From NCBI RefSeq assembly GCF_054482595.1, contig NZ_CM137008.1: DNA of 64,000 nucleotides; one strand, 5' to 3'. The position numbers and the translations under genes are program-made. The notes under the pieces are model-generated. The model was not told the origin of the DNA. It did no database searches and saw only the letters and a program-made list of their open reading frames with translations. The stretch's first letter is position 1. The number at the start of each line of letters is the position of its first letter. Below, piece after piece: positions 24,213 to 51,300 of the stretch.

Positions 24213-24506
24213 ATGGCCAAAGAACAAACGGACCGTACGACATTAGATCTGTTCGCGCACGAGCGTCGACCGGGACGACCGAAAACAAATCCGCTTTCGC
24301 GCGATGAACAGCTGCGTATTAATAAACGCAACCAACTAAAACGCGACAAAGTACGTGGCCTTAAGCGTGTCGAACTGAAGCTGAACGCGGAAGCTGTCGA
24401 GGCGCTGAACGAGCTGGCGGAATCGCGCAATATGAGCCGTAGCGAACTGATCGAAGAGATGTTAATGCAGCAACTGGCGGCGCTGCGTAGTCAGGGCATC
24501 GTTTAA
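24213..24506 (+). CDS. ybfE: LexA-regulated protein YbfE
   Basis: 97 aa from [24 protein letters not shown] (ATG at 24213); the ORF-track 120-aa version is an extension. Confidence 0.85.
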
Positions 24507-24645
24507 ATTTCCACTTTCATGTAGCACAGTGTGCAGTCCTGCTCGTTTGCTGATTCCGCAAGACTGCCTGTTCTGCTATGATTGCCTTTATCCGTGGGCA
24601 ATTTTCCACCCCCATTTCAATAAGTTTCAAGAGGTTATTTCACTC

Positions 24646-25176
24646 ATGGCTATCACTGGCATCTTTTTCGGCAGCGACACCGGTAATACCGAAAATATCG
24701 CAAAAATGATTCAAAAACAGCTTGGTAAAGACGTTGCCGATGTCCATGACATTGCAAAAAGCAGCAAAGAAGATCTGGAAGCTTATGACATTCTGCTGCT
24801 GGGCATCCCAACCTGGTATTACGGCGAAGCGCAGTGTGACTGGGATGACTTCTTCCCGACTCTCGAAGAGATTGATTTCAATGGCAAACTGGTTGCGCTG
24901 TTTGGTTGTGGTGACCAGGAAGATTACGCCGAATATTTCTGCGACGCATTGGGCACCATCCGCGACATCATTGAACCGCGCGGTGCAACCATCGTTGGTC
25001 ACTGGCCAACTGCGGGCTATCATTTCGAAGCATCAAAAGGTCTGGCAGATGACGACCACTTTGTCGGTCTGGCTATCGACGAAGACCGTCAGCCGGAACT
25101 GACCGCTGAACGTGTAGAAAAATGGGTTAAACAGATTTCTGAAGAGTTGCATCTCGACGAAATTCTCAATGCCTGA
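24646..25176 (+). CDS. fldA: Flavodoxin 1
   Basis: 176 aa from [20 protein letters not shown] (ATG at 24646). Confidence 0.93.
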
Positions 25177-25381
25177 TGTGATGCGGCGTAGACTCATGTC
25201 TACGCCGTATTAATAGATAATGCCAATCAAAATAATTGCTACAAATTTGTAACTTTTGCTGTTGTACCTGTACAATGTCCCGGTGTTCAAGTGGCCTTGC
25301 CGTTGTAAATGTAAGCTGTGCCACGTTTTTATTAACAATATTTGCCAGGGACTTGTGGTTTTCATTTAGGCGTGGCAATTC

Positions 25382-25400
25382 TATAATGATACGCATTATC
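25382..25400 (+). promoter_or_regulatory. Fur box in the fur/uof promoter (autoregulation)
   Basis: tATAATGATAcgCATTATC matches the GATAATGATAATCATTATC consensus at 15 of 19 positions and overlaps a TATAAT -10. Confidence 0.6.
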
Positions 25401-25472
25401 TCAAGAGCAAATTCTGTCACTTCTTCTAATGAAGTGAACCGCTTAGTAACAGGACAGATTCCGCATGACTGA
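25386..25472 (+). CDS. uof: Upstream-of-fur leader peptide Uof (28 aa)
   Basis: ATG at 25386 encodes MIRIISRANSVTSSNEVNRLVTGQIPHD; its stop (25470-25472) overlaps the fur start. Confidence 0.7.
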   Translation: MIRIISRANSVTSSNEVNRLVTGQIPHD

Positions 25473-25911
25473 TAACAATACCGCCCTAAAGAAAGCTGGC
25501 CTGAAAGTAACGCTTCCACGTTTAAAAATCCTGGAAGTTCTTCAGGAGCCGGACAACCATCACGTCAGTGCGGAAGATTTATACAAACGTCTGATCGATA
25601 TGGGTGAAGAAATTGGTCTGGCTACGGTATATCGCGTACTGAACCAGTTTGACGACGCTGGTATCGTCACCCGCCACAATTTTGAAGGCGGTAAATCCGT
25701 ATTTGAACTGACACAGCAACATCACCACGATCACCTGATCTGCCTCGACTGCGGCAAGGTTATCGAATTTAGTGATGATTCCATCGAAGCGCGTCAGCGT
25801 GAAATTGCCGCAAAACATGGCATTCGCCTGACTAACCACAGTCTCTATCTTTACGGTCACTGTGCCGAAGGCGATTGCCGCGAAGATGAGCACGCGCACG
25901 AAGGCAAATAA
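25465..25911 (+). CDS. fur: Ferric uptake regulator Fur
   Basis: 148 aa, MTDNNTALKKAGLKVTLPRLKILEVLQ...; His-rich C-terminus. Confidence 0.95.
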   Translation: MTDNNTALKKAGLKVTLPRLKILEVLQEPDNHHVSAEDLYKRLIDMGEEIGLATVYRVLNQFDDAGIVTRHNFEGGKSVFELTQQHHHDHLICLDCGKVIEFSDDSIEARQREIAAKHGIRLTNHSLYLYGHCAEGDCREDEHAHEGK

Positions 25912-25929
25912 GCCAGTCTGAACGAGAAA

Positions 25930-25955
25930 AGCCAACCTGCGGGTTGGCTTTTTTA
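25930..25955 (+). terminator. Rho-independent terminator after fur
   Basis: gccaacc tgcg ggttggc followed by tttttt. Confidence 0.75.
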
Positions 25956-25994
25956 TGCAAGGGAAATAAGAAAAGCGAGAGTTACAGCTCTCAC

Positions 25995-26321
25995 TTATTT
26001 GTTATTACTGCGAATTTCCTGCCAGACCTTATCACAATCGGCTTTCACCGCCTGATCATTTCCGGTTTGCGTTGCACGCAGACACTGCTGATAATCCAGT
26101 ACGCGGACACTTTCCTGGTCGGCAAACTGCTGATGTTGTTTCTCTTTCTTCAGCACGTTTAACACGCTCTGGCAGGCTTCAATTTTTTCCGGCGAACCTT
26201 GTGCGGTGTTGATACAGGCGCTGTATGCCTCTTTCAGACGGCTGTCTTCCTGTGGCGCGGTTGATTGCGCACAAGCTACCAGCCCCGATGCCATCATGGC
26301 GATGAGAATCAGTTTTTTCAT
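25995..26321 (-). CDS. chiQ: Lipoprotein ChiQ (YbfN)
   Basis: 108 aa with lipobox LVAC after the signal sequence; located downstream of chiP. Confidence 0.88.
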   Translation of the reverse strand: MKKLILIAMMASGLVACAQSTAPQEDSRLKEAYSACINTAQGSPEKIEACQSVLNVLKKEKQHQQFADQESVRVLDYQQCLRATQTGNDQAVKADCDKVWQEIRSNNK

Positions 26322-26370
26322 AGCAAATTCCTCAAACGTGCGGCAGGCACAAAACCTGCCGCGTCGGGCA

Positions 26371-27777
26371 TCAGAAGATGGTGAATGGTGCGATTACCAT
26401 AAATTTCACGTCACGCTCATCCTGGAAGATGTTGCCGTAACCACCGCCCCAGCTTGGGATGTCGGAGTGGTTGTCGTATTCGGTGAAGTGCAGTTTGAAC
26501 ATCGTGCCTTTGGCGCGACCGTCCTGAATGGTGTAGACCGCATCCAGGCTGTAGGCAGACTCTTCAATAGTCCGGTTTTTGTCGTAGTACGCATCCGGAT
26601 TGCTCTGCCAGGTCGCAGGTTTAGCATCCCATGCGTAAACGTAGGAAGCGCCGATGGCGAAGCCTGGAAGATTCCAGTTTTTCAGGTCATACATCGCACC
26701 GAAGAAGACCGCTTTTTCGCCGTTGGCGTTGAAGTCAGAACGGTTATCCCACCAGATATCCAGGCGACCGTTCGAAGAAGCGTAGGTTGGAGTCATACGT
26801 TGCAGGAAGTATCCCTGCTGACCGTCAGCTTTAACCCAGGTGCCTTCGAGACGCAAATCCACTACGTCAGCCGCCCGGTAACCAAAGGTCAACGCTTGCA
26901 GCCAGGCGGTGCCGTCATAAAGATCGTTGACGCTGCGATCGTCAACTTTATCGCGGGTACCGTAGAACTGGTAGCTGGTGGTTAACGGGCTACCGGCGAT
27001 ATCAAATTTGTAGCTGGCTTTGGCAAAATATTGATCGATATACCCTTCTGCCTGACCAAATGCCGCTTCCAGTACGAAGTTATTTTTGAAGTCGTATTTC
27101 GCCCCAAGGGAGTGCAGATAATCAACTTTGGTGGTTTTATCGTTCTGATAAAACTCATCCATTTCCAGATGCCACGGTGCTTTGTATTCGTTGGTCCACA
27201 TGTAGGAGAAACTCAACGCACCAGCATCGCCGTAATCAAAATTCGCTCCGGCTTCCGCACCCTGATAAGTACCCGGCATAAAGCTCCAGTGAGGCGCTAA
27301 CAGCGTCTGACCGGTTGGCTGACTATAACCTGCCCTCGCCCAAACCGGACCGTATTTAAATTTGGCCGCAGCTTTATACAGGCTTATACCGCTTTTGTCG
27401 CCGGACCAGTCTTCGTCATAGGCTTTATTACTTTTTGAAAACGCGATTTCGTTCGGGTGAGAGCTGTCGCCGTTTTCCGCCATTTCAATCGCCGTAAACG
27501 CAGCAATATCAAGGCCGAACATATCAGCAGCATAACCGGACTGAAAATCGAGGTTGGCATTCCAGGTGGAGTGAGAAAGGTTGGTTTTGTATTTGTCGCC
27601 GTCGGTAACATCTTTACGGTCGCGTTCACGCTGCCAGTAATATATACCGCCGGTTAAGGTTGAATCGTCGATGAATCCTTCGGCGCGAGCCTCCGGCATT
27701 GCCATAAAGCCCGACATTGCTGTAACACCGGCGATAGCCAGCGCCAGCGTACTACGTTTGCCACTAAACGTACGCAT
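26371..27777 (-). CDS. chiP: Chitoporin ChiP (YbfM), outer-membrane porin
   Basis: 468 aa, signal peptide, beta-barrel-like sequence ending in Phe; recognised as ChiP. Confidence 0.92.
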
Positions 27778-50364: not shown

Positions 50365-51300
50365 ATGGCACTGCCAATTCTGTTAGATTGCGACCCAGGT
50401 CATGATGACGCTATCGCAATAGTTCTCGCCCTCGCCTCACCAGAGCTTGATGTCAAAGCAATTACGTCTTCCGCCGGAAACCAGACACCAGAAAAAACCT
50501 TACGCAATGTTCTGCGTATGCTGACCTTGCTTAATCGCACCGATATTCCGGTGGCAGGCGGCGCGGTAAAACCGTTAATGCGTGAGTTGATTATCGCGGA
50601 CAATGTGCACGGCGAAAGCGGTCTCGACGGCCCGGCATTACCGGAACCGACGTTTGCACCGCAAAAGTGTACGGCGGTGGAGCTGATGGCGAAAACGCTA
50701 CGTGAAAGTGCGGAACCTGTCACCATTGTTTCTACCGGACCGCAAACTAACGTTGCTTTGCTGCTCAATAGCCATCCGGAACTGCATAGCAAAATTGCCC
50801 GTATCGTGATTATGGGCGGCGCAATGGGGCTGGGTAACTGGACGCCTGCGGCTGAATTTAATATTTACGTTGACCCGGAAGCGGCAGAAATTGTCTTCCA
50901 GTCAGGGATCCCGGTGGTGATGGCCGGTCTGGATGTTACTCACAAAGCGCAAATCCACGTTGAGGACACCGAGCGTTTCCGCGCGATTGGTAACCCGGTT
51001 TCAACCATTGTTGCCGAACTGCTGGATTTCTTCCTCGAATATCATAAAGACGAAAAATGGGGCTTTGTCGGCGCACCGCTGCATGACCCATGCACCATCG
51101 CCTGGCTGTTGAAACCCGAGTTGTTTACCACTGTTGAGCGCTGGGTTGGCGTGGAAACACAGGGGAAATATACCCAGGGGATGACGGTTGTTGATTATTA
51201 TTATCTGACTGGCAATAAACCGAATGCCACTGTAATGGTCGATGTTGATCGTCAGGGCTTTGTTGATTTACTGGCTGATCGTCTGAAATTTTACGCTTAA
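50365..51300 (+). CDS. rihA: Pyrimidine-specific ribonucleoside hydrolase RihA
   Basis: 311 aa from [16 protein letters not shown] (nucleoside hydrolase DxDxxxDD motif); ATG at 50365. Confidence 0.93.

Follow-up and report, generated by a model that had tools for sequence, protein, structure and literature searches.

Organization of the uof-fur locus

The fur gene occupies positions 25465–25911 on the plus strand of the window (the whole 64-kb stretch of DNA that was analyzed) and encodes a protein of 148 aa (NCBIfam NF006999, 309 bits). Reaching into its start is uof (b4637), an ORF of 28 codons plus a TGA stop codon on the same strand (25386–25472). Fur acts as the master regulator of iron; its leader ORF is a textbook case, in bacteria, of a regulatory upstream ORF under sRNA control. 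Read directly, the sequence around the ORF is ...TCTATAATGATACGCATTATCTCA...CCGCATGACTGATAAC; the window also reads ...GGCAATTCTATAATGATACGCATTATCTCAAGAGCA...GATTCCGCATGACTGATAAC... The 28 sense codons between the ATG at 25386–25388 and the in-frame TGA at 25470–25472 translate to MIRIISRANSVTSSNEVNRLVTGQIPHD, with UCA as codon 6 (25401–25403). Both genes overlap by 8 nt, ATGACTGA; the fur ATG begins at 25465 and the uof stop codon ends 5 nt past it.

An earlier note on this DNA had described a 28-codon ORF that overlaps the fur start and stops 5 nt into the gene. Direct reading bears out both statements. The limits given there, 25380–25473, contain the ORF, and run 6 nt too far in the 5' direction and 1 nt too far in the 3' direction. 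The remark that an ORF list shows uof merely as the tail of a longer ORF is also accurate, the longer one being a TTG-started ORF of 78 aa (25236–25472).

The spacer from the end of fldA into fur (311 nt) is 100% identical to that of E. coli K-12 MG1655, so that window positions follow from K-12 coordinates (NC_000913.3) as 736111 minus the coordinate. The K-12 RefSeq annotation places uof (b4637, “RyhB-regulated fur leader peptide”) at 710639–710725 and fur at 710200–710646, with the same 8-nt overlap. The peptide matches the equivalog family NF011344 (fur leader peptide) over positions 1–28 of 28 with 85.2 bits, above the cut-off of 71. Gene order is as in K-12, with ybfF, ybfE and fldA upstream of uof-fur, and chiQ and chiP downstream on the opposite strand. 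The region was found in 5424 of 5426 complete E. coli genomes; even the most divergent copies among the E. coli matches listed, at 98.1% identity, are annotated as uof. Alignment, annotation and family match thus agree with the name that the ORF had been given. It is the known E. coli uof, and there is nothing new in its sequence. In shuffled spacers, the frame from the uof ATG to fur stays open in about 26% of cases, and the length of the ORF is therefore unremarkable by chance. The ORF is meaningful because it is identical to an annotated, experimentally studied gene, not because of such statistics.

The Fur-repressed promoter overlaps the uof start codon

The proximal fur promoter (25359–25387, plus strand) consists of a -35 element, TTTTCA (25359–25364), a 17-nt spacer and a -10 element, TATAAT (25382–25387), and is the top sigma-70 match of the region (10/12). 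A Fur box, TATAATGATACGCATTATC (25382–25400), takes in the -10 hexamer together with the uof ATG and the proximal transcription start site (TSS). With 16 of 19 positions matching the consensus GATAATGATAATCATTATC, it is the top match on both strands of the 64-kb window. Other Fur-box-like matches in the window are located far from fur, at 51187 (15/19) and 53181 (14/19). The uof start codon begins inside the -10 hexamer and lies inside the Fur box, as the earlier note had said. With a Fur-box match over both the -10 hexamer and position 25395, the TSS, the site has the arrangement of a Fur-repressed promoter, in agreement with the literature.

The TSS itself has been mapped by SMRT-Cappable-seq (Yan 2018, PMC6131387 Suppl. 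Data 2). The operon ‘b0683’, which starts at NC_000913.3 710716 on the reverse strand, holds fur (b0683) alone. This TSS corresponds to window position 25395 (plus strand), the first base of uof codon 4, and lies 9 nt beyond the A of the start codon. Since the -10 hexamer is located at 25382–25387, transcription begins a few bases later, downstream of the ATG that overlaps the hexamer, and the proximal transcript therefore cannot encode uof. Published work describes the same geometry: in Sinha et al. 2018 (PMC6191717), Pfur is “located within the uof ORF” and a distinct promoter, Puof, is found upstream. Jaworska et al. 2021 (PMC7867234) likewise have Puof as a promoter of its own upstream; in their account both TSSs of fur fall inside uof, and the -10 element of Pfura is covered by the Fur box. 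The claim that the Fur box covers the promoter of uof does not hold, since the promoter under the box starts transcription 9 nt downstream of the uof ATG and its transcript lacks the uof start. With the start codon of uof under the Fur box and within the promoter's -10 region, the autoregulated promoter yields a uof-less transcript, and models or annotations in which Fur box, uof and fur follow one another as a single linear unit are wrong.

A TSS downstream of the uof ATG would also be expected if uof were a largely incidental ORF. Its ATG would then come from the TATAATGA in the -10 hexamer and the Fur box, and its scarcity of stop codons from constraint on promoter, operator, hairpin and Shine-Dalgarno (SD) site; most Fur would be made from the uof-less transcript via the gene's own ribosome-binding site. 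We consider this quite improbable. Long transcripts that contain uof exist, and further evidence for and against this explanation is given below.

Upstream promoters provide the uof-carrying transcripts

Transcripts carrying uof originate at promoters upstream of the proximal fur promoter. Two such operons are listed by SMRT-Cappable-seq (PMC6131387): b0684/b4637/b0683, from the fldA promoter (TSS 711521), and b0685/b0684/b4637/b0683, from the ybfE promoter (TSS 711951). Judged by these TSSs, the read-through operons of fldA and ybfE include the start codon of uof, and the fur-only transcript lacks it. The fldA coding sequence, for flavodoxin 1, is found at 24646–25176 (plus strand; K-12 annotation 710935–711465). 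It is followed by a terminator (25184–25214, plus strand), a hairpin of the form CGGCGTAGAC-tcat-GTCTACGCCG with mapped RNA 3' ends behind it, namely Term-seq 710897 (window 25214) and the SMRT-Cappable-seq termination site 710899 (window 25212). Most fldA transcripts stop at about the latter position. The stem shows compensatory changes between genera; a simple terminator scan missed the hairpin.

A third source is probably a distal promoter candidate, TTGTAA-N18-TACAAT (25247–25276, plus strand; 9/12 in the promoter scan), which would correspond to the published Puof. Its predicted TSS, at about 25283–25285, is roughly 100 nt upstream of the uof ATG. Just upstream of this candidate is an OxyR-like site (25213–25249, plus strand), matching 14 of the 20 specified positions of ATAGnTnnnAnCTATn7ATAGnTnnnAnCTAT. 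Site and candidate promoter are nearly invariant in 10 genera, and the promoter's CTGTACAAT is invariant in them. OxyR activation of fur is cited in PMC12683245, and it may act through this site. A proximal TSS past the uof ATG, together with TSSs further upstream, defines two classes of fur mRNA: long ones with a translatable uof, and a short, Fur-repressible one without it.

RyhB pairing and translation initiation

According to Vecerek et al. 2007, as far as summarized in passages of PMC7534054, PMC12683245 and PMC11550727, translation of fur is coupled to the 28-codon uof, and RyhB blocks uof initiation, which lowers Fur synthesis. The stop/start overlap seen here is an arrangement suited to such coupling, as had been pointed out before; that uof is translated and that fur translation depends on it is described in the secondary literature and does not come from this sequence. 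Passages in PMC7466049 and PMC11448259 further report that the UCA at codon 6 makes decoding dependent on the Fe-S enzyme MiaB. Codon 6 in the window is TCA (Ser), to be read by MiaB-modified tRNA-Ser.

A complement to the RyhB seed is predicted at 25404–25419 (plus strand), with an RNAduplex energy of -11.9 kcal/mol against the K-12 ryhB sequence. In the predicted duplex, the core GAGCAA (25405–25410) pairs with RyhB U42-C47, and RyhB G44 and C45 are opposite C25408 and G25407. The RyhB G44C C45G swap abolishes repression of uof/fur (PMC6191717), in agreement with the pairing predicted at 25407–25408. Prediction tools do poorly at recovering the extended pairing that has been published (PMC3018821). 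Full-length RNAduplex runs of RyhB against the spacer gave unrealistic “duplexes” of 80–130 nt, and a sliding 40-nt seed scan ranked an upstream site (25256–25290, -18.6) above the published one, for which reason the RyhB analysis was confined to the uof region.

The SD-like site of fur, CAGGAC (25450–25455, plus strand), precedes the ATG by 9 nt and forms an anti-SD duplex of -4.0 kcal/mol. The value for uof is -4.6 kcal/mol with a 10-nt spacer, and the median of all ATGs in the window is -2.9. Both start sites have weak SD-like sequences with long spacers. The ACAGGAC in front of fur is nearly invariant among the Enterobacteriaceae loci (L003–L065).

A conserved hairpin in the leader RNA

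The 5'-UTR contains a hairpin, UCACUUC-uucuaau-GAAGUGA (25417–25437, plus strand), with a stem of 7 bp that lies within uof codons 11–18 and is part of the minimum free energy fold. All Enterobacteriaceae loci (L003–L065) have a hairpin at this distance from fur, with or without an intact uof. The stems differ in a compensating manner (ACUUC/GAAGU, GCUCC/GGAGC, CGCUCA/UGAGCG, GCCC/GGGC), and per-sequence folding shows the hairpin to be more stable than shuffled sequences, with z mostly about -2 to -6. Per-sequence folding and shuffles were used because RNAalifold, run on a MAFFT alignment, failed to recover the hairpin, as unequal loop lengths misalign the 5' arms. Whole-leader folds showed no extra stability relative to shuffles (z = +0.19 and -0.43). 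An Rfam scan of 24400–26400 (E ≤ 1) returned irrelevant sub-threshold matches alone, none of them over the uof/fur leader or the hairpin.

A long-range helix of 17 bp is predicted in the long transcript between 25357–25375 (the proximal -35 region as RNA) and fur codons 6–11 (25481–25497), and was considered as a basis for the coupling. It reaches about -20 kcal/mol in E. coli and E. albertii and is no better than controls in other genera. As it is strong in Escherichia only, it was dropped as a general mechanism.

In published Term-seq tables, a very strong RNA 3' end (scores 137086 and 180817) falls on the U of the fur AUG, at 710645 (window 25466). It is flagged “uORF” and as not Rho-dependent. 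No terminator-like structure precedes this 3' end, and the main text of the Term-seq paper makes no mention of fur. Either a product of processing or a stable fragment of the leader could give rise to this end.

Hairpin, 3' end and RyhB site can also be combined into regulation at the RNA level that does without uof translation. RyhB would pair at 25404–25419 on the abundant short fur mRNA and destabilize or silence it directly, and the hairpin and a processing site at the fur AUG would shape the fate of the mRNA. The short mRNA does carry the seed complement, because the latter lies downstream of the proximal TSS. Sinha et al. 2018 (PMC6191717) found that RyhB lowered the short fur mRNA and not the uof-fur mRNA, an effect that fits poorly to a mechanism acting solely through uof initiation. 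The compensatory changes in a hairpin common to all Enterobacteriaceae loci, uof-less ones included, and the strength of the 3' end at 25466 point in the same direction. However, the seed duplex is modest (-11.9 kcal/mol) and located about 50 nt upstream of the fur SD site, the hairpin has no Rfam match and only a putative function, and the published model, as given in passages of PMC7534054, puts repression on blocked uof initiation. On balance, regulation of this kind as the main control in this segment seems unlikely.

Conservation of the uof frame in Enterobacterales

We compared 80 fur loci of Enterobacterales. The TATAAT hexamer is present in 77 of them, and it is followed by the G that completes an ATG (TATAATG) in 72, whether the ORF is open or not. 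The -35 element at 17-nt spacing is mostly TTTTCA, and the Fur-box half GA(G/T)ACGCAT is almost invariant, also in genera with a broken ORF. The elements conserved across the 80 loci are the -35 element, TATAATG, the Fur box, the hairpin and the fur SD site.

The fate of the ORF that starts at the conserved ATG is far more variable. It ends at ATGACTGA in 36 of the 80 loci and in the window, upstream of fur in 24, and at an ATGA on the fur start in seven. In four loci it is in frame with fur, and in one it runs on through a lost stop codon. The in-frame loci are those of Enterobacter sp. R1 (L056), Buttiauxella izardii (L057), B. agrestis (L059) and Dryocola (L062), where no stop codon separates the TATAATG ATG, about 66–69 nt upstream, from fur; an N-terminally extended Fur of 172–173 aa is formally possible there.

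Single-base indels in the hairpin loop cut the ORF to 14–16 codons, which then end 30–39 nt before fur. Such 1-nt indels were found in Salmonella enterica subsp. arizonae, Citrobacter sedlakii, Klebsiella oxytoca and Raoultella, and six assemblies with a Salmonella-type Fur of 150 aa have them as well. In the Salmonella-type loci (L083–L088 and L027; 78 nt upstream of fur), promoter, Fur box, hairpin and SD site are retained. The loop of the hairpin has lost 1 nt, which leaves the uof homologue with 16 codons, MIRIILSAISVTSLMK, and its end 27 nt short of the fur ATG. Stop/start coupling in the manner of E. coli cannot operate in these loci.

Several observations are what an incidental ORF would leave behind. 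TATAATG is retained in 72 of 80 loci irrespective of the state of the ORF, and the ORF is cut short in Salmonella-type and Klebsiella loci with all other elements kept. The peptide is poorly conserved save at its 3' end, which shows equal conservation as DNA in loci with a closed ORF, and UCA6 is kept in Escherichia and Citrobacter and not beyond. The uof SD site is weak, and an ORF of this length arises in about 26% of shuffles. Conservation of the uof ATG is explicable by the -10 hexamer and the Fur box, because the ATG does not vary even in loci with a broken ORF; promoter and operator would account for it, and it could be the act of translating uof, not the peptide, that matters.

Other observations speak against an incidental origin. 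The frame test covered 73 sequences, the window and 72 loci. The frame of the ATG stays open as far as the start of fur in 49 of the 73, compared with 31 of 73 for the +2 frame and 26% for shuffled spacers. Indels of 3 nt keep the frame, giving versions of 28, 29 and 30 codons. These counts and indels are suggestive of some selection for an open frame, a signal that is weak given shared ancestry. Lineages also reach fur in different frames, at ATGACTGA, at ATGA or in frame with the gene. Published genetics and toeprinting report coupling and RyhB action on uof, according to passages in PMC6191717, PMC7534054 and PMC12683245. As judged from these genomes, the uof-fur overlap is a lineage-restricted arrangement.

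Proposed control of Fur synthesis

The E. coli arrangement very probably combines coupled translation on long transcripts with a short, Fur-repressible transcript that lacks uof. On the long transcripts, from the ybfE, fldA and distal “Puof” promoters, the last probably activated by OxyR, ribosomes would start at the uof AUG and read its 28 codons. By translational coupling, those terminating at the UGA at 25470–25472 would favor initiation at fur, whose own start site is weak. RyhB, made when Fur is inactive, would pair across the uof initiation region and so reduce translation of uof and hence of fur, and the UCA at codon 6 would tie uof decoding to the Fe-S enzyme MiaB. The second class of transcript would start at 25395 from the TTTTCA-N17-TATAAT promoter, be repressible by Fur and keep the RyhB seed complement. 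As the uof AUG is absent from it, translation of fur on this short transcript is independent of uof; we infer that coupling is limited to the long transcripts. To this reading the sequence contributes the identity of the ORF, its geometry, the Fur box and the RyhB complementarity, published data contribute the TSSs, and the literature contributes coupling, the RyhB block and the MiaB effect.

A broader proposal, which we put forward tentatively and hold to be rather doubtful, is that promoter choice sets the mode of translational control of Fur. The proximal promoter would give a uof-less mRNA translated from fur's own weak site, and the upstream promoters, reported as responsive to oxidative stress (OxyR and SoxS), would give uof-coupled mRNAs dependent on RyhB and MiaB, that is, on iron. 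Promoter, Fur box and covarying hairpin would then form the conserved core, and uof coupling would be a lineage-restricted addition, absent in Salmonella and Klebsiella.

The rediscovery of uof, a known and annotated gene, in an E. coli window adds nothing new. What is useful is the correction that the autoregulated promoter gives a transcript without uof. The comparative data warn against presuming uof coupling in Salmonella or Klebsiella. A question visible in the literature is the share of Fur synthesis that passes through uof, given the effect of RyhB on the short mRNA (PMC6191717).

Comparison with known systems

In comparison to uof of K-12 (YP_001491546.1; Vecerek, Moll and Blasi 2007), the DNA is the same, and so are the ORF of 28 codons, its overlap of 8 nt with fur, UCA as codon 6, the complementarity to RyhB and the gene context fldA-fur-chiQ-chiP. 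There are zero sequence differences, and the sole departure is the earlier note's account of the uof promoter. Similar systems are thrL and ivbL, which are targets of GcvB (PMC7534054). Each resembles uof in that an sRNA targets initiation at a short upstream ORF, the translation of which sets the expression of the gene behind it. However, thrL and ivbL act by transcription attenuation, whereas uof, without a terminator/antiterminator pair, is described as acting by the overlap of its stop codon with the start of fur.
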